From: a bacterium
Lineage (GTDB): Bacteria > Bacillota_I > Bacilli_A > RF39 > UBA660
Assembly (NCBI GenBank): GCA_029100545.1
Contig: JAQXPH010000033.1
Coordinates: 9,672-73,671 of the forward strand
Direction: 5' to 3'
DNA: 64,000 nucleotides
Below, piece after piece: positions 12,481 through 59,648 of this stretch (position 1 is the first letter of the stretch; every line of letters begins with the position of its first letter). Both the position numbers and the translations under genes were made by a program. The notes under the pieces were generated by a model. The model ran no database searches. It saw only the letters and a list, made by a program, of their open reading frames with translations, and was not told the origin of the DNA.

Positions 12481-12509
12481 TTGTTAAGTATTTTTTTTTG
12501 TGGTATTAT
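12481..12509 (+). promoter_or_regulatory. predicted sigma-A-type promoter of P1 with a T9 tract in the spacer
   Basis: TTGTTA-17 nt-TATTAT with TG at the extended -10 position. The spacer contains T9 (12491-12499). Confidence 0.45.
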
Positions 12510-12527
12510 TTATAATAGGTGAAGGGT

Positions 12528-13616
12528 ATGAGAAAAGAAAATACTAGTCCATTGATTGTTACCATACTTGCTGTCATTTCTTTGGCATGTATTTCTGTAG
12601 GTGTATCATATTCTTATTTATCAAAAATATCTTCATCAAATGTAACAGCAAATATACAAACTGGTAATTTAAATGCTACTTTATCATATGTTCAAATTAC
12701 TGATGGTGCATTAGTTCCACTTTCAGATAGTGATGGAGTAAATCAAACTACTTATGCTAAAGTATCTATTTCCAAAAATAATCAATATACTGTTTTTTAT
12801 ACAATTAATATTTCATATTCTGTTGATTCTTTATCTTCTTATGGAATAACTACAGATGATTTATTACCATTAGAATATGTAAGGGTGGCACTTTTTGACT
12901 CAATAGATTCAAATATTCCTTTAGTGGGTCCTATTGCAATAACTGAACTTCCTTTACAAAGTGTTGATACAATAAATCATTATAAGGATATATATACTCT
13001 TGCATTTGGTAATTTTATCGCAGGCTCTGATACAAAAGATTATTATATAAAGGCTTGGCTTGATCCTATTACACCAGAAATTAATGAAGGAAGACCTATT
13101 TTGCTTGATGTAAATATTACCCAAAATCCTTTAGTGAGCACTTCAATTTATAATTTATCTGGGAATGTAACTGTTGATGGAACAGCGGTAACGGGAGCAG
13201 TAGTATCACTTCAAAATGGATTAGTTAATTCAACTACTTCAAGTGGAGCATTTAATTTAACAAATGTGCCAATTGGTACTTATAATTTATCAGTAAATTA
13301 CAATAATAATAAATATGAAACAACAGTAAATATTTCATCAGGAAGTAGTGAAAGTGTGTCTGCAAGAAGTAGTGCAACATGTGAAGCAGGTTCATATTTA
13401 CAAAATTGTGCATTTACATATTTTACAACTGTAGACAAAATTGTAAAGATGAATTCTATAACTTCTGGAAGTAATACACAATTAGCAAGTTCTTATAATT
13501 TACCAACTTCTTATTTAATAACTGGAAAAGAATCAATTTCAGTTTTAGATATAAGTGGTATTAAAATTGATGTTAGTACTGCTTCAAATAGTGTTTCTTT
13601 AGTAATTTTAAAATAA
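12528..13616 (+). CDS. secreted protein P1: TasA/CalY-type (SipW-type) signal peptide, N-terminal domain and CarboxypepD_reg-like beta-sandwich
   Basis: The leader ends ...ISVGVSYSYLSKISSSNVTANIQTGNLNATL, compared with GGGTFAYFSD...AGTLDL of CalY/TasA. The C-terminal LSGNVTVDGTAVTGAVVSLQNG...GAFNLTNVPIGTYNLSV matches the carboxypeptidase-regulatory-like fold pattern. Confidence 0.6.
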   Translation: MRKENTSPLIVTILAVISLACISVGVSYSYLSKISSSNVTANIQTGNLNATLSYVQITDGALVPLSDSDGVNQTTYAKVSISKNNQYTVFYTINISYSVDSLSSYGITTDDLLPLEYVRVALFDSIDSNIPLVGPIAITELPLQSVDTINHYKDIYTLAFGNFIAGSDTKDYYIKAWLDPITPEINEGRPILLDVNITQNPLVSTSIYNLSGNVTVDGTAVTGAVVSLQNGLVNSTTSSGAFNLTNVPIGTYNLSVNYNNNKYETTVNISSGSSESVSARSSATCEAGSYLQNCAFTYFTTVDKIVKMNSITSGSNTQLASSYNLPTSYLITGKESISVLDISGIKIDVSTASNSVSLVILK

Positions 13617-13640
13617 AAATAAAAAATTACTTAAAAGTAC

Positions 13641-13676
13641 TTGATTTATGATTATAATTTGTGATAAATTTATAAT
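13641..13676 (+). promoter_or_regulatory. predicted promoter of P2 (paralogous to 14493-14527)
   Basis: TTGATT-17 nt-ATAAAT with TGn upstream, and a TATAAT 7 nt further on. The whole block CTTGATT...ATAATAGAAAGGAGA is duplicated before P3. Confidence 0.5.
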
Positions 13677-13700
13677 AGAAAGGAGATAGGAAAGAAAGAT

Positions 13701-14390
13701 ATGGAAAAGAAAAATACTTTATTGTTAACTGTTATAGCAGTAGCTACATTATTAGTAGCAGTAGTAGGTGCGACATTCGCATACTTCGGTTCATTTACAA
13801 CTACTGTTGATAACAAAGCAGCAGTAAACGTTGCAACTGAGGCTGCTAAATCATCAACATTTTCTACATCATCTGCATCACTTAAATTAAATGTAGCTGG
13901 ATCAGAAATGCTTAAAGGTACTGGCTCTGCAACTCAAGTTGGTTCATATACTGGAGATAATGCTAATTTAATAGTATCATTAGAAGCAAATGACCAAACA
14001 ACTACAACTACTTGTACATATGATGTTTATTTTGTTTATGATGAAGGATCAGCAGTATATGGTAATGATCCAACTCCAGTAACAGCTGGAACTGATAATA
14101 AAGAATTTACTTACACATTAAAATCTGATGCTGCTGGTTTAGTAGTTGATCCTACATATATAGCTGAAACTGAAAAAGATTTCTCAGTATTTAAAACTGC
14201 TACAACTGCAGTTAAAGTAGCTTCAGGAACAATTGCTGCAAGTAATACTACTACAACTCAAACACTTACTGCAAAAGTTATGTTCTATAATTTCCCAACA
14301 ATCGATCAAACTGCACTATCTGATAAGACTTATGGCGGTAAATTCTATGTTGAACAATCTACTGTAGTTTGTGGTACAACAGCTGTATAG
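13701..14390 (+). CDS. secreted fibre-subunit candidate P2 (TasA/CalY-type signal peptide, novel body)
   Basis: MEKKNTLLLTVIAVATLLVAVVGATFAYFGSF. The mature part is T/S/A/V-rich with two Cys (C105, C224) and motifs CTYDV and FYNFPTIDQTAL..GKFYV. It has a strong SD, its own terminator and C-ending codons. Confidence 0.7.
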   Translation: MEKKNTLLLTVIAVATLLVAVVGATFAYFGSFTTTVDNKAAVNVATEAAKSSTFSTSSASLKLNVAGSEMLKGTGSATQVGSYTGDNANLIVSLEANDQTTTTTCTYDVYFVYDEGSAVYGNDPTPVTAGTDNKEFTYTLKSDAAGLVVDPTYIAETEKDFSVFKTATTAVKVASGTIAASNTTTTQTLTAKVMFYNFPTIDQTALSDKTYGGKFYVEQSTVVCGTTAV

Positions 14391-14422
14391 TAAAACAGTT
14401 AAACAATTTTAAATATAAAACT

Positions 14423-14446
14423 CGGCCTATTATAGGTCGTTTTTTT
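14423..14446 (+). terminator. rho-independent terminator after P2
   Basis: CGGCCTA / TAGGTCG stem (one G-U pair) followed by T7. Confidence 0.6.
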
Positions 14447-14492
14447 GATATTATTTTTTATGTATAAAAAGAGTAAAGTTTTATTTTTTTTC

Positions 14493-14527
14493 TTGATTAA
14501 TAATTATATTTGATGTTAAATTATAAT
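14493..14527 (+). promoter_or_regulatory. predicted promoter of P3
   Basis: TTGATT-17 nt-TTAAAT, then TATAAT. Paralogous to the P2 promoter. Confidence 0.5.
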
Positions 14528-14543
14528 AGAAGGAGAAATTAAT

Positions 14544-15245
14544 ATGGAAAAGAAAAATAGTTTATTTTTAACAATTGTGGCTGTTGCAGTTTTACTAGCT
14601 GCAGTAGTGGGAGCAACATTTGCATACTTTGGTTCATTTACAACTACAGTAACTAATCGAGCTGCGGTAAATGTTACAACAGCTGAGGCAAAATCATCTT
14701 CATTTATATCAACAGCAGCTGCACTTTCATTAAGTGTATCAAGTTCAGAAATGCTAAAAGGTACAGGTAGTGCAACTTCAGTTGGAACTTATGCAGGAGG
14801 AAATTCAAACGCTACTTTAACAGCAAGTTTAACTGCAACTGATTCAACAACAACCACAACATGTACATATGATGTAATGTTTGCTTATGATAGTACTTCT
14901 GCAATTTATGGTAGTGCAACAACTCCAGTAACATCTGGAACAAATAACCAAGAATTTGTTTATACAATAACTTCATCTGCTCCAACATCTTTAGTTATTC
15001 AAAATTCATATAAAAATGCAAATAGTGATTTTTCAACATTTAAGACAGCTACTAATGAAACAAATGCTATTAAAGTTGCAAGTGGTACAATTTCTGCAAA
15101 AAATACTACTACAACTCAAACACTATCAGTAAATGTTAAATTTTATAATTTCCCAACAATTGATCAAACTGCCCTTGCAAGTAAAACATTTTCTGGAAAA
15201 TTTTATGTAAATTCAACATCTGTAGTTTGTAATACAACTGCTTAA
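14544..15245 (+). CDS. secreted fibre-subunit candidate P3 (tandem paralogue of P2)
   Basis: The first ~35 aa are almost identical to P2 (VVGATFAYFGSFTTTV). Same CTYDV and FYNFPTIDQTAL..GKFYV motifs, with Cys107 and Cys229. Confidence 0.7.
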   Translation: MEKKNSLFLTIVAVAVLLAAVVGATFAYFGSFTTTVTNRAAVNVTTAEAKSSSFISTAAALSLSVSSSEMLKGTGSATSVGTYAGGNSNATLTASLTATDSTTTTTCTYDVMFAYDSTSAIYGSATTPVTSGTNNQEFVYTITSSAPTSLVIQNSYKNANSDFSTFKTATNETNAIKVASGTISAKNTTTTQTLSVNVKFYNFPTIDQTALASKTFSGKFYVNSTSVVCNTTA

Positions 15246-15253
15246 TAAGTAAA

Positions 15254-15283
15254 AAAATAACTTTTAATTAGTTATTTTTTTTA
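15254..15283 (+). terminator. rho-independent terminator after P3
   Basis: ATAACT / AGTTAT stem followed by T8. Confidence 0.5.
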
Positions 15284-15342
15284 TTACATGAAATATTGAA
15301 AAAAATGTTTAAATTTGATAACATTAATATAGGGTAAAAAAT

Positions 15343-15978
15343 ATGAATGATAGAAAAAAAAGAAATATTATTTATTTAATTGTATTTATATTCATATTTG
15401 TAATGATAATAACAGTTAGTACTTATTGTTATTTTATTACAAAAGATTTTTATTATGGTAATTTTAATGTTGAAGTAAATACTAAAGGTGTTGATACATT
15501 GCAAATGAAAAATTTAGTAGATGCTAATTTAAATGTAAATGATCGTAATTTTATTAAAGATGTAGGTCATTCTATAAGTGGAACAAGTTCAATTGATGTA
15601 GTACTTGATACCACTAAAAAAGAAACTAAATATTGTTATAATGTATATTTAAGTTTGCCAGATAATGAAATATTTTCTTATAGTAATTATCCTAAGCCTG
15701 AACTTAGTTTATCAGTTTATGAAACTAATAATAATGAAAAAAATATATTAATAGATAATATTGATATAACTAAAAGTACTGGTAAAATAGAGGTTCCTTC
15801 AAGTTTAAATAATGAAAATATTATTCATAATATATCTACAACTAAAAATAAAACAAATACTATAACTTATGAAGCAGTTATAACATTTAATTATTTTCCT
15901 AATATAGATCAAAGTATTAATGGTAATTTAAGTTATAAAGCAACTTTAGTAGTCGATAATGTATATGAATGTAAGTAG
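15343..15978 (+). CDS. divergent family member P4 (minor-subunit candidate)
   Basis: The leader ends ITVSTYCYFITK. It shares KYCYNVY, FNYFPNIDQS and a C-terminal Cys (VYEC) with P2/P3, but is N/K/I-rich with ordinary codon usage. Confidence 0.6.
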   Translation: MNDRKKRNIIYLIVFIFIFVMIITVSTYCYFITKDFYYGNFNVEVNTKGVDTLQMKNLVDANLNVNDRNFIKDVGHSISGTSSIDVVLDTTKKETKYCYNVYLSLPDNEIFSYSNYPKPELSLSVYETNNNEKNILIDNIDITKSTGKIEVPSSLNNENIIHNISTTKNKTNTITYEAVITFNYFPNIDQSINGNLSYKATLVVDNVYECK

Positions 15979-16001
15979 CATATAAAAATATGCTATTTTT
16001 T
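15976..16001 (+). terminator. rho-independent terminator after P4
   Basis: TAGCATAT-AAAA-ATATGCTA followed by T6. Confidence 0.6.
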
Positions 16002-40546: not shown

Positions 40547-41716
40547 TTGAAAAAATATAAAATAGTAATAATTATAATAGTGATTTTTATAACTATAGAA
40601 GTAAAAGCAATTAGTCTTAGTAATAAAAATGGTTCATTATTTAGAAATTTATGTTCAAATGATGGAAAAATATATGAAATTAAATTTATTAATTTACAAG
40701 AAAGAGAAAGTTATTTTTTACTTCCTTTAGAAAAATTTAACATTGATTTAAAAACTTATGAATATTCTTCACTTGAAAAAACTAATTTTCCTTTAGATTT
40801 AAAAGATTATTATTTATCATTTATTGAATTTAAAAATAAATATAATTTAAATTTTTATGTTTATCATGGTTTAACTCAAAGACTTATTTGGAATTATTTA
40901 TATCCTGATAAAAACTTTAGATTTTGTGATGATAATAAAAAATATTATGATTTTTATGAAAATGAATATAATGAAGTTAAAGAAAAAATAGAAAATGTTA
41001 TTAATGGTCCAGAATTTTTTAAAAATATAAACTATCAATTACCTAATAAAGAATATATATATGAATTTAAATATTTAGATAATTATTATGTATATGATAA
41101 TGGTGGACTTGATGTAAAACTAATAAATAATAAACTTTATATAAAAGGAGAAAAAGGAAGTTATAAAATATTATTTAAGAAAAATAAAGTAGTTTATAAT
41201 GATATTTTATTTAATTATTTAGTTACGGATGGACAAAATTATGTCTTTAGTGCTAATAATTATAATGATGTAACTTATGAAATGAATATAATAATAGATA
41301 ATTATAATTTAACTATTATGGTTACTGATAATGAAGAAAGTTTAAATAAATGTATAACTTTAACAAGTGAAAGTGAAAGTAATGTATTTTGTGCAAATGA
41401 AAATAATTTAATTAATATTAGTCTTTTAAAAGGAAAATATATAATTACTTATAATGAAGATGATTTATATAAAGAAAAAAGTATTACAATAAATCTTGAT
41501 AAAGATAATTTAATTAAATTAAACTTAGAAAGAAAAAATGCTATAGAAAAAGATAATCTTATAAAAGATGATATTAAGTTAGATAATAATATTAATGAGG
41601 AATATACAGATAATATTATATTTGAAAATACATTATCTATTAATAATATAATTTATATTATTATATTTTTAATTATAATTTCTACTGGAGTTATTTTTGT
41701 TAGAAAGAAAAAATAA
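40547..41716 (+). CDS. surface protein with signal peptide and sortase-type C-terminal anchor (non-LPXTG)
   Basis: Signal peptide ...TIEVKA/IS. The C-terminus is FENTLSINN plus an 18-aa hydrophobic stretch plus RKKK. Its 3' end overlaps the sortase-like gene. Confidence 0.55.
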   Translation: MKKYKIVIIIIVIFITIEVKAISLSNKNGSLFRNLCSNDGKIYEIKFINLQERESYFLLPLEKFNIDLKTYEYSSLEKTNFPLDLKDYYLSFIEFKNKYNLNFYVYHGLTQRLIWNYLYPDKNFRFCDDNKKYYDFYENEYNEVKEKIENVINGPEFFKNINYQLPNKEYIYEFKYLDNYYVYDNGGLDVKLINNKLYIKGEKGSYKILFKKNKVVYNDILFNYLVTDGQNYVFSANNYNDVTYEMNIIIDNYNLTIMVTDNEESLNKCITLTSESESNVFCANENNLINISLLKGKYIITYNEDDLYKEKSITINLDKDNLIKLNLERKNAIEKDNLIKDDIKLDNNINEEYTDNIIFENTLSINNIIYIIIFLIIISTGVIFVRKKK

Positions 41717-42194
41717 AATAGGTTATTTAATTATAATAATAATTATATTGTTATGCTTTAATAAAACAAAATATTTAAAAAATGATACTAATATTTTTAT
41801 ATTTGATAATTATAATAATACTTTTGATATTTATTTAAAAATACCTAAAATAAATTTTAAAAAAACATTTAATGATAAATCTTCTTTAAAAGATAATATT
41901 ATGTTATCACCTTATTCTAAAATAAAGAATAATAAAAGTACAATTATTATATTAGGTCATTCAGGATATGCAAAAAATGCTTTTTTTAATGATTTAATTA
42001 ATTTATCTATTAATGATGAGATATTTATTAAATATTTTGGAGTTACTTATAAATATATTATATTTGATATTGAATATATAACTAAAAAAAGTAGTTATAT
42101 AATAACTTATGAACAAAATTATTTATATTTAGTAACATGTGATTTATTTAATTTAAATAAACAAATTGTAATTAAAGCAAAATGTATAAAATAA
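41697..42194 (+). CDS. miniature sortase-like transpeptidase
   Basis: N-terminal TM, IIILGHSG (catalytic His context) and LYLVTCD (TLxTC Cys motif). I could not see the usual C-terminal catalytic Arg. Confidence 0.55.
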   Translation: MLERKNKIGYLIIIIIILLCFNKTKYLKNDTNIFIFDNYNNTFDIYLKIPKINFKKTFNDKSSLKDNIMLSPYSKIKNNKSTIIILGHSGYAKNAFFNDLINLSINDEIFIKYFGVTYKYIIFDIEYITKKSSYIITYEQNYLYLVTCDLFNLNKQIVIKAKCIK

Positions 42195-42231
42195 TTACTT
42201 TTTTATCAATATAATTTTGAAAGGATATGAT

Positions 42232-43008
42232 ATGAGTAATTATAAAGTTGATATAACTGGAATTAATACAAGTACTTTAAAATGTTTAACTCATGAAGAA
42301 AATATTAAATTATTTAAACTATATCAAAATGGAGATTTAAAAGCAAAAGATGATTTAGTAAATGGTAATTTAAAATTAGTTTTATCTGTATTAAAAGGAT
42401 TTAATAAAAAAGGTATTAATCAAGATGATTTATTTCAAGTAGGAGTTATTGGTTTAATAAAAGCTATTGATAATTTTGATTTATCTTATAATTTAAAATT
42501 ATCTACTTATGCTGTACCTTTGATAGTTGGAGAAATAAAAAAATATTTAAGAGATAATACCCAAATGAGAATAGCAAGAAGTATAAAAGATGATGCTTAT
42601 AAAATACTTAGGTTTAAAGAAGAATATATAAATAAATATGGAAAAGAACCATTAAATAGTGAAATATCAAAGGCATTAAATATAAGTGAAATTGATATAA
42701 GTTTTGCTTTAAATGCTTTAAAAGAACCAATGAGTATATTTTCTCCAATATATTCTGATGGGGGAGATACAATTTATTTAGAAGATCAAATCGCAGATAC
42801 TAAAGAAAAAAGTTTTGATAAAGATATGATGATATCATTATATAAAGCTTTAAAAAAAATTAAAGAAAGAGAAAAATCTATTTTAATGGAAAGATATGTT
42901 GTTGGTAAAACTCAAACTGAAATAGCAAATGATTTAAATATATCACAAGCACAAGTATCTAGAATAGAAAAAAATGCTCTTATAAAAGTTAGGAGACTTA
43001 TTAAATGA
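42232..43008 (+). CDS. sigG: sporulation sigma factor, SigG-like (SigF/G group)
   Basis: GLIKAIDNFDLSYNLKLSTYAVPLIVGEIKKYLRDNTQMRIARSIKDDAYKIL closely follows the SigG region 2 signature. No spoIIAA/AB upstream. Confidence 0.8.
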   Translation: MSNYKVDITGINTSTLKCLTHEENIKLFKLYQNGDLKAKDDLVNGNLKLVLSVLKGFNKKGINQDDLFQVGVIGLIKAIDNFDLSYNLKLSTYAVPLIVGEIKKYLRDNTQMRIARSIKDDAYKILRFKEEYINKYGKEPLNSEISKALNISEIDISFALNALKEPMSIFSPIYSDGGDTIYLEDQIADTKEKSFDKDMMISLYKALKKIKEREKSILMERYVVGKTQTEIANDLNISQAQVSRIEKNALIKVRRLIK

Positions 43009-43581: not shown

Positions 43582-45813
43582 ATGGAAAATAAAAAAAATA
43601 AATTAGATAAAAAAAGTATTTCAATTATTATAATAGTAGCAATTTTTCTAGTTATTATAATGGCAATAACTTTTGCTTATTTTGGTAATTTTTTTGTAAA
43701 TCTTGGTAATATGTTAAATGTTAATTTATCTGCTGGAGAATTATCAAATGCTTATTTAAATGCAACAAATACATCATTTTCTATTGATATTGATCCTGAA
43801 AATATGAGTGAAGATAATGCAGGTAATTTTGTTATAACTAATGAGTCTAGTTTAAATGTATTTTTAGATGCAGGTACAACTAGTTTTGGAGTTAAATGTA
43901 CTTATGATATTATGTTTGAATATGATAGTACTTCAAGTATTTATGGTAAAGAGCCAACTCCAGTAAGTGATGGAGCAACAAAAGAATTTACTTTACAAGC
44001 AAGTGGACCAACTACTTTTTCTAATTTTTTTAAAGAAGAAACAAATTTTGCTTATGATAGTAATTGGAGTTCTAATCCATATAGAAGAACTATTGCAAGT
44101 AATGTAGAAATTATAAATACAAGTTCAAATAATCCTATAGTTCAAACATGGATTTTTACAAATAAATTTTATAATTTAGATTTAGATCAAACAGCTCTTG
44201 CTAATAAAAAATTTAAAGGTAGATTTTATGTAGATAATACTCATTGTGAAACTACCCAAATTGCTAATGATAGTGAAACTTTATATGCATTAGTACAAAA
44301 TAAATATAATGAAGGAAATACTTTTGTAAAACTTTATGATGGAGAAGGATCTGATTCCTATGCTAATCCAGTATACTATTATAATGGCGCAGTACAAGAT
44401 AATAATGTTTATTTTGCGGACCTATGCTGGAAAATGGTTAGAACTACCGATACTGGAGGAGTTAAATTAATTTATAATGGAACGCCAAAAACAATTACCA
44501 AACCAATACCTATAGAAGAATCACAGTATCTAAATGTATCGAATGATGCAAACTACCCATATACATTTGATAGTACTAATAAAACATGGACAAGTACTAA
44601 TAAAACTAATAGTGCCACCGGTACAATAACATTTACTGTAGCAGAAGCAGGTGATTATTTTCTATCATATACCGTTTCTTCAGAGGCAAATTGGGATAAA
44701 GCAATATTTTATAAAGATGGTACAACGCTTGGTACTTACAGTGGTGAAGCAAGTGGAAGCATTACTCTAGATGGTCTTACAACCTCAAATGTAATAAAAG
44801 TAGAGTATACAAAAGATTCATCGGGAGCAATTGGTAGTGATAATGTAGTCTTTAGTTTGGATAAACCCTCTGGTAATTCATATTTAACATGTAATAATAC
44901 TGGAACTGATTCTCAAATAGGAACAAGTTCATTTAATGGTAGTTATGATTCTCTAGCATATGTAGGTTATATGTATAATACAGAGTATACTTCTTCATCT
45001 AAAACAAGATCACAATTATCTAATATAGTATTTGGTAATTCATTTACATATTCAGGTGGCACGTATACACTTGCTGATACAATGACAGTAGCAACTTGGT
45101 CAAGTGGTTATAATACAATAAATAATAATCATTATACGTGTTTTACTACGGGTACTACTTGTCCGTCTTTATATTATGTACATTATGCTGATTCTTCAAA
45201 TGCATATTATATAACGCTTACGGGTGGTAAATCAGTAAGCGATGCTTTAAATGAAATGTTATATGTAGGTGATGTAAATAAAACTAATTCAATAATAAAA
45301 ACATATATAGAAACATGGTATGAAAATAATATGACAGCATATACATCATCTCTAGAAGATACAACTTATTGTAATGACCGAAGTATAATAAATTTAAATG
45401 GCTGGAATCCAAATGGAGGAAGTACAACTGGTTATTTACAATTTAAAAATTATAATGATAATTATAGTTTAGTATGTGGTAGTGTTACAGATCAATTTAG
45501 AGTAGGAAATACAAAAGCACCACTTAAATATCCAGTAGGTTTACTTACAGCCCCAGAAGTATTGCTAGCTTATAAAGATGCAAATTATAGCACATATTAT
45601 TTAAATACAGAACAGATTTATTGGCTTGGGTCCCCTAGCTACTTCATCAACAAAAACAGCAATGCTTACGTGCGTCTCGTCAGTAGTTCGGGCAACCTGA
45701 GTAACAACTACGTGAACGATTCTATCGGGGTCCGCCCGTCCGTTTCCTTAAAACCTGGCACCGAATATATTTCAGGAAATGGGTCATATACTTCACCATT
45801 TTTGATAGAATAG
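43582..45813 (+). CDS. large family member P5: TasA/CalY-type leader, P2/P3-like module and ~520-aa adhesin-like extension ending in a lectin-like domain
   Basis: The leader ends IIMAITFAYFGNF. It shares VKCTYDIMFEYDSTSSIYGKEPTPVS and FYNLDLDQTALANKKFKGRFYVDNTHC with P2/P3. The extension contains YYYNGAVQDNNVYFADLCWKMVRT and ends YWLGSPS...SIGVRPSVSLKPG..GNGSYTSPFLIE. Confidence 0.7.
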   Translation: MENKKNKLDKKSISIIIIVAIFLVIIMAITFAYFGNFFVNLGNMLNVNLSAGELSNAYLNATNTSFSIDIDPENMSEDNAGNFVITNESSLNVFLDAGTTSFGVKCTYDIMFEYDSTSSIYGKEPTPVSDGATKEFTLQASGPTTFSNFFKEETNFAYDSNWSSNPYRRTIASNVEIINTSSNNPIVQTWIFTNKFYNLDLDQTALANKKFKGRFYVDNTHCETTQIANDSETLYALVQNKYNEGNTFVKLYDGEGSDSYANPVYYYNGAVQDNNVYFADLCWKMVRTTDTGGVKLIYNGTPKTITKPIPIEESQYLNVSNDANYPYTFDSTNKTWTSTNKTNSATGTITFTVAEAGDYFLSYTVSSEANWDKAIFYKDGTTLGTYSGEASGSITLDGLTTSNVIKVEYTKDSSGAIGSDNVVFSLDKPSGNSYLTCNNTGTDSQIGTSSFNGSYDSLAYVGYMYNTEYTSSSKTRSQLSNIVFGNSFTYSGGTYTLADTMTVATWSSGYNTINNNHYTCFTTGTTCPSLYYVHYADSSNAYYITLTGGKSVSDALNEMLYVGDVNKTNSIIKTYIETWYENNMTAYTSSLEDTTYCNDRSIINLNGWNPNGGSTTGYLQFKNYNDNYSLVCGSVTDQFRVGNTKAPLKYPVGLLTAPEVLLAYKDANYSTYYLNTEQIYWLGSPSYFINKNSNAYVRLVSSSGNLSNNYVNDSIGVRPSVSLKPGTEYISGNGSYTSPFLIE

Positions 45814-58517: not shown

Positions 58518-58868
58518 ATGAGTAAAAAAGATGAGTTTAAAGAATTTGCTAAAAATAATCCTAATCTTGCTTCATTTGTTGAAAATGGTCAAATGACATG
58601 GCAAAAATTTTATGAACTTTATGATATATATGATAGGGATGCAACTGTATGGAATAAATATACTAAAACAAGTTCTGAATCAACTGGTAGTAGTATTGGC
58701 AAAATAAATGATTTAATTAAAAATGTTAATATGGACACAATAAAAGAACATATTTCAACTGCTCAAAAAGCATTAGATTTTGTACAAGAACTTACGAGTA
58801 AAACAAGTACAAGTACTCCAAAAACTGGGGTTAGTCCTAGACCACTTAATAAATTTTTCGAGGATTAA
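58518..58868 (+). CDS. YlbD-like putative spore coat protein
   Basis: NPNLASFVENGQMTWQKFYELYDIYDRDATVWNKY resembles the YlbD pattern. Followed by a YlbE-like gene as in Bacillus. Confidence 0.4.
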   Translation: MSKKDEFKEFAKNNPNLASFVENGQMTWQKFYELYDIYDRDATVWNKYTKTSSESTGSSIGKINDLIKNVNMDTIKEHISTAQKALDFVQELTSKTSTSTPKTGVSPRPLNKFFED

Positions 58869-59147: not shown

Positions 59148-59648
59148 ATGAGAAATAATAAAAAAGGTTTTACACTTATCGAACTTTTAGCAGTTATCGT
59201 TATTCTAGCAGTAGTTATGCTTATTGCAGTAAGTGCTGTTGGACCATTAATGGCAAAATCTAGGAAAGGAGCTTTAGAAAACGAAGGTATAGCGCTTTCA
59301 AATGCTGCGAAAACAGCTTTCCAAGCTGAACAATTAAATGCCAACTCAGCTATTAAAGCTACAAGTACAGTATGTTTTGATCTAGAGTATTTATATAGTC
59401 AAAAGTACTATGAAAAAGGCTCTGCACAAGATTATACTGGTTCAGTATTAGTAACATATGCTGGTGGAGATTATACTTATAAAATTTGGATTTCTAATAA
59501 AACATATGCTATTTCAGGAAAAGCACCAAATGCTATTAATTTAGACACTGATGTTACTGATGCTACAAGCGCATCAAATAATTGTGGTGGAACTCTTGCA
59601 ACTGGTAATGTCTATTGTACTGGTTCAGCTTGTACAGTTCAACCATAA
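59148..59648 (+). CDS. type IV pilin (prepilin-type N-terminal cleavage/methylation domain)
   Basis: MRNNKKG/FTLIELLAVIVILAVVMLIAV is a canonical class III signal with Glu+5. Cys-rich C-terminus (NNCGG..VYCTGSAC). Strong SD and terminator. Confidence 0.85.
   Translation: MRNNKKGFTLIELLAVIVILAVVMLIAVSAVGPLMAKSRKGALENEGIALSNAAKTAFQAEQLNANSAIKATSTVCFDLEYLYSQKYYEKGSAQDYTGSVLVTYAGGDYTYKIWISNKTYAISGKAPNAINLDTDVTDATSASNNCGGTLATGNVYCTGSACTVQP

Follow-up and report, generated by a model that had tools for sequence, protein, structure and literature searches.

The 64-kb stretch of contig JAQXPH010000033.1 (assembly GCA_029100545.1) analysed here, hereafter called the window (G+C about 22–26%), encodes five proteins, P1 to P5, that are probably components of an extracellular TasA-like fibre or matrix in an uncultured gut bacterium of low GC content from the class Bacilli. 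This assignment is carried by the paralogy of P2, P3, P4 and the N-terminal domain of P5, by the leader class common to all five proteins, by an archaeal-type signal peptidase encoded within the operons of relatives and by a remote homology of the protein bodies to camelysin and TasA. An earlier note on this DNA, made from the letters alone, had proposed a new kind of secreted fibre; the system is instead an unusual variant of the SipW-dependent systems of the TasA superfamily. It differs from the known ones in a two-cysteine, unannotated branch of subunits, several paralogues, frequent fusions, a LysM-type accessory protein and the lack of an adjacent peptidase gene. The features discussed are collected in Table 1.

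Table 1. Genes, protein parts and hairpins of the system. Positions refer to the window unless a related locus is named; arrows mark predicted cleavage sites.
Feature	Position	Strand	Description
P1	12528–13616	+	Accessory protein; open reading frame (ORF) with an in-frame GTG at 12519 as alternative start; SipW-class leader (..SVGVSYS↓YLSK), TGNLNATL box, N-terminal domain of its own family (~175 residues), CarboxypepD_reg-like beta-sandwich (~210–280), LysM-like beta-alpha-alpha-beta (~280–330), C-terminal strands
P2	13701–14390	+	229 residues, major-type subunit; leader MEKKNTLLLTVIAVATLLVAVVGATFA (invariant), predicted cleavage A27↓Y28; N-terminal extension 28–~42 (conserved, unstructured), beta-sandwich body with C105 and C224
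Hairpin 3′ of P2	14423–14446	+	Terminator-like, with T-run; folding −9.0 kcal/mol, z −3.3
P3	14544–15245	+	233 residues, second major-type subunit; 67% identity to P2; own Shine-Dalgarno sequence (SD), AT-rich upstream
Hairpin of P3	15251–15281	+	A/U-only, terminator-like; folding −9.5 kcal/mol, z −3.8
P4	15343–15978	+	211 residues, paralogue of the minor type with an ordinary h-region; STYC↓YF as cleavage motif; C98/C210; mature N-terminus DFYYGNFNVEV.SKGVDTL, highly conserved
Hairpin 3′ of P4	15975–16002	+	With U-run; from folding
P5, whole	43582–45813	+	743 residues; found by six-frame motif scan, ~30 kb from P1–P4
P5, N-terminal part	43582–44259	+	Leader (..AITFA↓YFGNF) and P2-type domain, C106/C222
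P5, C-terminal extension	44260–45813	+	~516 residues; weak DUF6273 at the end; candidate displayed or adhesive module
Asp-repeat proteins (cluster 9)	L048:10754–12958; L059:9330–11654; L113:7989–9962; others		440–960 residues

A paralogous family with an invariant pair of cysteines

P1 to P4 are four consecutive plus-strand ORFs whose leader strings read as the earlier note had given them, as do the box IQTGNLNATL of P1 and the landmarks KYCYNVY, FNYFPNIDQS and VYEC of P4. Its cysteine positions were likewise correct for P2 (C105/C224) and P3 (C107/C229), to which we add the pair of P4 and a further cysteine, C29, in the P4 leader. The body pair is invariant in 46 homologues of P2 and in nine of P4, and this invariance by itself suggests a C105–C224 disulfide in P2. 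P5 residues 1–227 align with the whole of P2 at 32% identity (BLASTP, E = 2e-18), and the P4 subfamily matches the P2 family in hhalign with 97.5% (E = 7e-12, 198 columns). On these sequence comparisons P2, P3, P4 and the N-terminal domain of P5 are paralogues, the common layout of which reflects homology and not chance. A set of two major-type subunits, one minor subunit and one accessory protein with a beta-sandwich domain, as originally described, is what the window encodes, and within its 64 kb the leader motif occurs in this context only in P1–P5.

Searching the databases with P2 yielded 1234 relatives at E ≤ 1e-3, all of them unnamed and none with a Pfam domain; the protein identical to P2 (locus tag PUD07_04915) stems from a metagenome-assembled genome (MAG). 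Relatives are encoded by 396 stretches of species-representative genomes, 80 of which were taken for the locus analysis. These 80 loci belong to gut MAGs labelled 'Mycoplasma sp. CAG:472', 'uncultured Bacilli' and 'uncultured Tenericutes', and a few are labelled Muribaculaceae, which we read as mislabelled bins. A single locus holds up to six tandem, strongly diverged paralogues of 194–337 residues, and the major-type bodies drop to 20–40% identity across genera. The gene order in about 20 genomes is RNase J, a small gene, P1, the paralogues, a ZIP transporter, an epimerase and a patatin; since the cluster occupies a fixed chromosomal place in these genomes, it is vertically inherited and not an island. 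In L001, L002, L003, L006, L012, L017, L018 and L028 no other family gene stands between P4 and the ZIP gene.

A leader-free profile of P2, P3, P4 and the P5 N-terminal domain matched 208 proteins among 1.84 billion representatives. In all of the 150 matches listed the body domain starts at about residue 28–35, and about a third of these 150 proteins are 430–830 residues long, with C-terminal extensions of 200–600 residues. No Pfam match beyond a weak DUF6273 was obtained for the extensions, except for one with BspA-type leucine-rich repeats; in P5, DUF6273 reaches 19.6 bits, which is below the cut-off. As these fusions suggest, the P2-type domain may be a common carrier for adhesin-like modules. 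In relatives of P5 (P0387, P0262–P0306) the extensions end in a recurrent ..VRP[VS][IL][SY]LK...G.G[ST]...P[YF].. pattern (weak DUF6273).

The leaders belong to the TasA/SipW class

All five proteins show the layout of the class, namely a K/R-rich n-region, a hydrophobic h-region and a motif G-x-T-[FWY]-A-x-F over the cleavage site. This motif reads GATFAYF in P2 and P3, AITFAYF in P5, STYCYF in P4 (STYAYF in relatives) and VSYSYL in P1 (TAYAYL and FSYAVF in relatives), the P1 motif being conserved across 29 loci. TasA is cut after T-W-A (T-W-A↓A-F), and its mature chain in the structure 8AUR starts at A28 and has its phenylalanine at position 2; the T-F-A↓Y-F of P2 lies at the same distance from the start. 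SipW tolerates an aromatic residue at P2′, the second residue past the cut (PMC10269814). The model of the SipW-dependent signal class, TIGR04088 (curated cut-off 19 bits), matches 65 of 128 family members with a best E-value of 8.4e-5; at least one relative passes the cut-off, L021:10001–10702 with 19.7 bits, and others score 10–16 bits. The agreement of the motif with the TasA site and the TIGR04088 matches of the relatives place the leaders of P1–P5 in the TasA/SipW class, as the earlier note had recognised.

The leaders are not conserved to the same extent in all subunits. Residues 1–27/29 of the major-type proteins are near-invariant (M[ED][KR][KR]NT.LLTVIAVATLLVAVVGATFAYF), and the full 27-residue leader is invariant in these proteins only; minor proteins from operons that also encode a major one have only T[FY]A[YF]F in common with it (L012, L017, L018, L021, L024).

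Operons of relatives encode a dedicated signal peptidase

Clustering of all ORFs revealed an archaeal-type signal peptidase I in eight of the 80 loci that had been found by the leader. The operon order in all eight is major subunit, (minor subunit), large Asp-repeat protein, peptidase and (P1-like protein). The peptidase scores 96.9 bits against TIGR02228 (cut-off 51.85) and 88.7 bits against the Bacillus SipW model, and its SGSMEP, THR and GDxN motifs with their Ser, His and Asp residues are invariant. Approached from the side of the peptidase, three out of three look-ups showed an invariant-leader protein and an Asp-repeat protein just upstream. A peptidase profile search returned 2427 homologues, none of which is tied by name to this MAG; among metagenome loci collected with this profile (n = 80), about half have leader proteins directly upstream, with many contigs too short to tell. 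Contig L113 encodes an Asp-repeat protein, the peptidase and, 9 kb off, a P-type protein that has two Cys and is extended at its C-terminus. The signal peptidases within the operons of relatives back the TasA-type export route that had been proposed for the window proteins, which would likewise be substrates of this route. A SipW-like peptidase is absent from the window itself according to a motif scan and tblastn, in agreement with the earlier note.

The Asp-repeat proteins sit between the major gene and the peptidase gene and carry a leader of the type ..G[AS]TY[ST]YY.., followed by long Asp-rich DxNGDGxPD repeats that are calcium-binding-like and a C-terminal domain that ends camelysin-like (..EWKETGTNQNVDSGKQFKAIFRV). 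The window contains no equivalent of these proteins.

The bodies are remotely homologous to camelysin and TasA

The AlphaFold2 (AF2) model of P2, built with 46 homologues, has a mean predicted local distance difference test (pLDDT) of 84 and consists of a helix (4–26), an unstructured stretch (21–38) and an all-beta sandwich (43–228) with pLDDT > 90. Foldseek matched this model to weak jelly-rolls of the PDB (TNF family, Pgp3, luteovirus readthrough domain; E about 1e-3), and searches of PDB and BFVD gave weak jelly-roll or uncharacterised matches with TM-scores of about 0.2, the viral models offering nothing useful. TasA is a jelly-roll (PMC9674648). As expected from the earlier note, direct searches did not recognise the mature bodies of P2–P4 as TasA or camelysin.

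The link to this superfamily is provided by relatives. In a Pfam scan of the 128 relatives, PF12389 (Peptidase_M73, camelysin/TasA; gathering cut-off 22.5 bits) matched four proteins, one of them above the cut-off: L056:1239–1763, a minor protein of a related operon, which scores 37.9 bits (E = 2.1e-9). This protein belongs to a group of relatives that we call T-type (alignment A9), made up of the minor proteins encoded after the major one in operons with the peptidase, together with some majors whose leader is the invariant one (L070). Characteristic of the group are the N.[LIM]PG box of the family and, towards the C-terminus, DQN..NK.F.G. Leaders were removed before the T-type group was compared with the P2 family in hhalign, which gave 97.2% (E = 9e-11, 146 columns) in global and 96.6% (164 columns) in local alignment. 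When, in a stricter set, the L070 majors were left out and a further 20 residues cut away, the value was still 93.2% (E = 2.9e-7), now for 75 C-terminal columns. The controls remained at 0.1–0.6% for reversed sequences and at 0.1–1.6% for the P1 N-terminal domain, which is of similar composition and unrelated.

Common to the T-type and P2 groups is the C-terminal motif F-x-[ND]-..-DQ-..-K-x-F-x-G-x-[FL]-x-V, in which FYNFPTIDQTALSDKTYGGKFYV of P2 pairs with TYKDT..DQNHN.NK.F.G.L.V; the stretch that the earlier note had taken as the hallmark of the family is thus its version of the camelysin/TasA C-terminal motif. Several proteins score on the P-type and T-type hidden Markov models (HMMs) alike. 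Direct comparison of the T-type alignment A9 with TasA of B. subtilis is weak (28%, E = 6e-4, over the leader and the NLKPGD region). Judged by this transitive profile-profile evidence, the P2-type body appears to be a far-diverged, unannotated branch of camelysin/TasA (Peptidase_M73), a remote homology that amounts to membership at the superfamily level. The idea of a new subunit fold or family is not supported, as the bodies are linked to Peptidase_M73 both via the relative that passes PF12389 and via leader-free hhalign values of 93–97%.

The segment that follows the cleavage site deserves attention as well. Mature residues 28–56 show a conservation of 0.61–0.64, compared to about 0.45 in other variable parts of the body, and in the AF2 model residues 21–38 are disordered and 41–50 of low confidence (pLDDT 54). 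The donor strand of TasA comprises residues 28–38, which immediately follow the cut and in which F29 and I32 are buried (PMC9674648), and P2 has F29 and F32, matching this position. By analogy, the conserved yet disordered mature N-terminus of P2 is a hint of a donor strand.

P1 is a candidate wall anchor

Of 81 loci, 29 have P1 beside the major genes, and the P1 family of these 29 loci has the same leader class and a TasA-like N.I.TG.L box. The N-terminal domain of about 175 residues is unrelated to the P2 or T-type bodies (hhalign 0.1–0.2%), and between the P1 and P2 families the leader alone aligns. The only family match among P1–P4 was obtained for P1, with Pfam CarboxypepD_reg at 27 bits, which is below the cut-off; a Pfam LysM match at E ≤ 1 was not found for P1 alone. 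A profile of the P1 family (A2) retrieved NOMO/CarboxypepD_reg-type sandwiches (1e-13) among PDB sequences and, at profile positions 279–343, LysM domains (4uz2, 1.6e-6; LytE, 4e-6; Ecp6, 1.6e-4). In the AF2 model of P1 (pLDDT 76.6) the LysM-like stretch consists of two helices flanked by strands. The LysM-like and CarboxypepD_reg-like matches therefore make P1 a candidate wall-binding anchor or initiator that may fill the slot of TapA functionally, without being a TapA homologue. The window had been described as lacking SipW, a regulator and an anchoring protein; while the first absence holds, that of an anchor is doubtful because the P1 family carries the LysM-like domain. Foldseek matches of the P1 model to the BcpA pilin (4.3e-5), AbpA (7ueg, probability 0.77, rank 28) and FimA were too weak to be used.

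A model of assembly and its relation to known systems

From these results we infer cleavage, polymerisation and a role of each paralogue as follows. P1–P5 would all be exported by Sec, and an archaeal-type signal peptidase I resembling SipW would cleave them at T-[FY]-[ASC]↓[YF]-[FL], separating the small residue from the aromatic pair, which is A27↓Y28 in P2. P2 and P3 as major subunits, P4 as the minor one and the N-terminal domain of P5 would have in common one beta-sandwich of about 195 residues, a far-diverged branch of the camelysin/TasA superfamily. The freed N-terminal segment (YFGSF... in P2) would then act as a donor strand that completes the sandwich of a neighbour and so yields a linear polymer, in analogy to TasA, BsaA and AbpA. 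P4 may start or cap the chain, P5 would put its 516-residue extension on the fibre, and P1, with its LysM-like and CarboxypepD_reg-like domains, would fasten the fibre to the peptidoglycan or nucleate it there in a TapA-like role.

When compared to tapA-sipW-tasA of B. subtilis, the system is alike in the signal class, in which the cut falls within T-aromatic-A↓x-F, in a dedicated archaeal-type peptidase in the operon (here in relatives), in a major subunit of jelly-roll or beta-sandwich type whose N-terminal extension follows the cut directly and in a same-leader accessory protein, TapA there and P1 here, with a presumed role in anchoring or nucleation. In contrast, P2–P4 do not score as TasA/Peptidase_M73, and their direct similarity to TasA is that of the leader only; they carry an invariant pair of cysteines, several paralogues take the place of the single subunit, the sequence of P1 is unlike TapA and includes CarboxypepD_reg-like and LysM-like domains, and no sipW gene is adjacent in this lineage. 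CalY/camelysin and TasA of B. cereus (PF12389) are connected with the system through the minor protein of a related operon that passes PF12389 and through the F.[ND]..DQ..K.F.G region of the P2 family, whereas the window proteins lie below PF12389 detection.

The sipW-bsaA-bsaB-bsaC operon of C. perfringens resembles it in combining SipW, more than one TasA-like paralogue and a large extra secreted protein, and its remote TasA homology was also found by profile methods only, with a donor-strand model from predictions (PMC11580942). BsaA has an intermolecular isopeptide bond (N-E-K triad, not looked for in P2) where the P2 family has the conserved Cys pair, and the large partner is a VWA protein there and an Asp-rich repeat protein in our relatives. 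AbpA/AbpB of Pyrobaculum calidifontis provide a further parallel, as AbpA is a jelly-roll pilin of the TasA superfamily that was tied to TasA by profile-profile comparison only, no dedicated peptidase lies beside the genes and a multi-domain accessory protein was proposed as initiator or adhesin (PMC9245690); the P1 model also has a weak Foldseek match to AbpA (7ueg). Unlike the system described here, AbpA/AbpB are archaeal, have AMA↓TL as leader and only one pilin, and lack a Cys pair.

Points against a TasA-like fibre and alternative explanations

Several results weigh against the assignment to a TasA-like fibre. TIGR04088 gave no match to P1–P4 at E ≤ 1, and none to P2 at E ≤ 10. Pfam and NCBIfam returned nothing for P2–P4, and neither PF12389 nor the TasA model NF046066 matched any of P1–P5. 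The P2-family profile had zero matches at E ≤ 10 among PDB sequences, TasA included, and the A9 profile did not retrieve TasA from them either; in the direct comparison of P2 with TasA the leader alone aligns, and chains of the TasA, AbpA and CalY type are not among the top 50 Foldseek matches of the P2 model. The link from the T-type group to the P2 family is transitive, runs through a single intermediate group and comes from small alignments (effective number of sequences, Neff, 2.7–3.4). No signal peptidase I is encoded in the adjoining contig sequence, 8 kb upstream and 6 kb downstream, as covered by same-strain assemblies (L081, L083), and the 29 loci in which P1, P2 and P4 are arranged in this way show none within 10 kb. 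That the complete leader is nearly invariant in the majors only is not explained by a simple signal peptide that is cleaved and discarded, and polymerisation is put forward by pure analogy.

Among the alternatives, the one that survives best, although we regard it as unlikely, is SipW-type export without polymerisation, so that P1–P5 would be soluble or wall-associated surface proteins of the camelysin type or a variable coat or antigen set, with paralogues that serve antigenic or phage-receptor variation. The up to six tandem and strongly diverged copies per locus would fit this explanation, as would the arrays of some relatives. L076:1–9700 holds six family genes in alternating orientation, and similar arrays are present in L034, L058 and L085. 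Inverted repeats of 77–197 nt (89–100% complementary) in L076 span the leader-coding region and upstream DNA; two of the copies start with ATG, and the rest have AAG at that codon with an otherwise identical 5′ region. L085 contains leaderless body fragments on both strands. The arrangement of L076 looks like an expression site with silent cassettes, the bodies of which could be shuffled by inversion, and no obvious recombinase gene was found within the L076 locus. Moreover, the weak fold matches are trimeric TNF-like jelly-rolls and not fibre subunits, and the oligomeric status of P2 rests on analogy. On the other hand, each of the characterised members whose structure was examined (TasA, AbpA and, by modelling and mutants, BsaA) polymerises through a donor strand at the N-terminus, the monomer model leaves the conserved mature N-terminus disordered, and the presence of major, minor and fused-extension paralogues together with a LysM accessory protein resembles the parts list of a pilus.

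It is less probable still that the leader stays uncleaved and that the proteins are type II membrane proteins, in which an invariant helix holds a beta-sandwich stalk that is bare in P2 and P3 and carries cargo in P5. The whole n- and h-region is invariant in the majors across genera, the bodies of which are only 20–40% identical, and this is unusual for a discarded signal peptide; furthermore, the body always follows directly after the helix, C-terminal cargo is frequent, and the TNF-family jelly-rolls among the weak fold matches are type II membrane proteins. However, the residues at −3 and −1 are small, the motif matches the proven site of TasA, operons of relatives include the gene of a dedicated signal peptidase and the minors retain the cleavage motif alone with helices that are free to vary. 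The leaders of TasA and CalY, too, are well conserved between Bacillus species.

Since the minors keep the cleavage motif alone and their helices vary, recognition by the peptidase is not the cause of the whole-leader invariance in the majors. In the model for BsaA, SipW cuts only once a new subunit has joined (PMC11580942); this model and the cassette arrays of relatives offer partial ideas for the invariance. As a speculation to which we give only a limited chance, P2-type proteins might form the principal surface fibre, variable in its antigens, of a whole clade of uncultured gut Bacilli with reduced genomes, with a major leader that is more than a signal peptide: either a membrane-held primer of assembly that a SipW-type peptidase cuts only after the subunit has joined, or a conserved recombination and expression site for silent cassettes without start codon, as in L076.

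The explanation favoured by the earlier note, a fibre subunit of a fold or family unrelated to TasA that merely adopted a TasA-type leader, finds little credence with us. All direct sequence and structure searches are negative, and the leader is attached to several types of bodies: among the leader-bearing bodies (n = 230), 106 are P-type (83 of these with exactly two Cys), 34 T-type, 22 P1-type and 68 unassigned, and the invariant leader is found on P-type and T-type bodies alike. Swapping of the leader onto unrelated bodies is therefore conceivable. This is countered by the leader-free hhalign values of 93–97% to the camelysin-like group with clean controls, by the C-terminal DQ...K.F.G motif of both groups and by the proteins that score on both HMMs. 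Likewise, a structure search did not connect AbpA with TasA, and only HHpred linked the two (PMC9245690).

Type IV pilin-like or sortase-assembled pilins, suggested by the hydrophobic N-terminal helix and by a GFTLIE prepilin gene (59148–59648) and a small sortase gene in the window, are highly improbable and were rejected as identity of P1–P5, as these have no G↓FTLxE, carry their conserved motif after and not before the hydrophobic stretch, lack an LPXTG-type C-terminus (P2 ends in ..VVCGTTAV) and do not score on TIGR02532, on which the true prepilin reaches 33 bits. Five related loci (L030, L044, L047, L065, L080) have one to four GFTLIE pilin genes just downstream of the family and ZIP genes, three of the five with a further upstream copy. 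This co-location probably reflects a conserved gene order around the ZIP, AP-endonuclease, penicillin-binding protein (PBP) and EF-P genes and not an operon; it is noteworthy because the secretion of BsaC and of BsaA oligomers of C. perfringens depends on type IV pilus proteins (PMC11580942).

Expression signals and gene neighbourhood

P2 and P3 had been credited with a promoter-like block, a strong SD and a terminator of their own. Each gene is indeed preceded by an AGGAG SD and followed by a terminator; promoter-like hexamers are no commoner than in shuffles (42 vs 38 ± 7 in the promoter scan). Hairpins with U-runs follow P2, P3 and P4, and none follows P1. The reported preference for C-ending codons applies to TTC in P2 (6 of 11) only; P3 uses TTC once in 13 and TAC once in nine cases.

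At 74–598, 12 kb upstream of the cluster, the window encodes a thioredoxin/glutaredoxin-like protein (weak PedC-like Pfam match), which is a possible oxidoreductase for Cys pairs. Four genes lie 5′ of P5 (40547–43523) and encode a 389-residue protein, a small sortase, a sigma-70 family factor (42217–43008) and a DUF5698/DUF2179 membrane protein. The 389-residue protein has a signal peptide, a C-terminal hydrophobic stretch with an RKKK tail and no LPXTG motif, and the sortase (41697–42194) is very small with 165 residues (Pfam Sortase 3e-13, class C/D-like). A PBP is encoded in the window as well, and judging from the PBP and sortase genes the host has a cell wall. For the lineages RF39, RFN20 and ML615J-28 a peptidoglycan wall is mostly predicted as kept (PMC10868615). 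A homologue of the coat protein YlbD (58518–58868) fits with the predicted retention of sporulation genes in related uncultured orders (PMC10868615).

Implications

We found no papers on RF39 in connection with SipW or on the leader peptide strings. The genes are annotated as hypothetical only, and no Pfam or NCBIfam model covers P2-type proteins; through the link described here, about 200 sequence clusters become nameable. They form a family that sits at a fixed site and has been multiplied and diversified in widespread uncultured gut bacteria. If the proteins do build TasA-like fibres, the TasA/AbpA donor-strand family would gain a Cys-bearing branch with fusions of subunit and adhesin, and these fibres would probably be the principal adhesive or matrix structure of their hosts and a target for host antibodies and phages.

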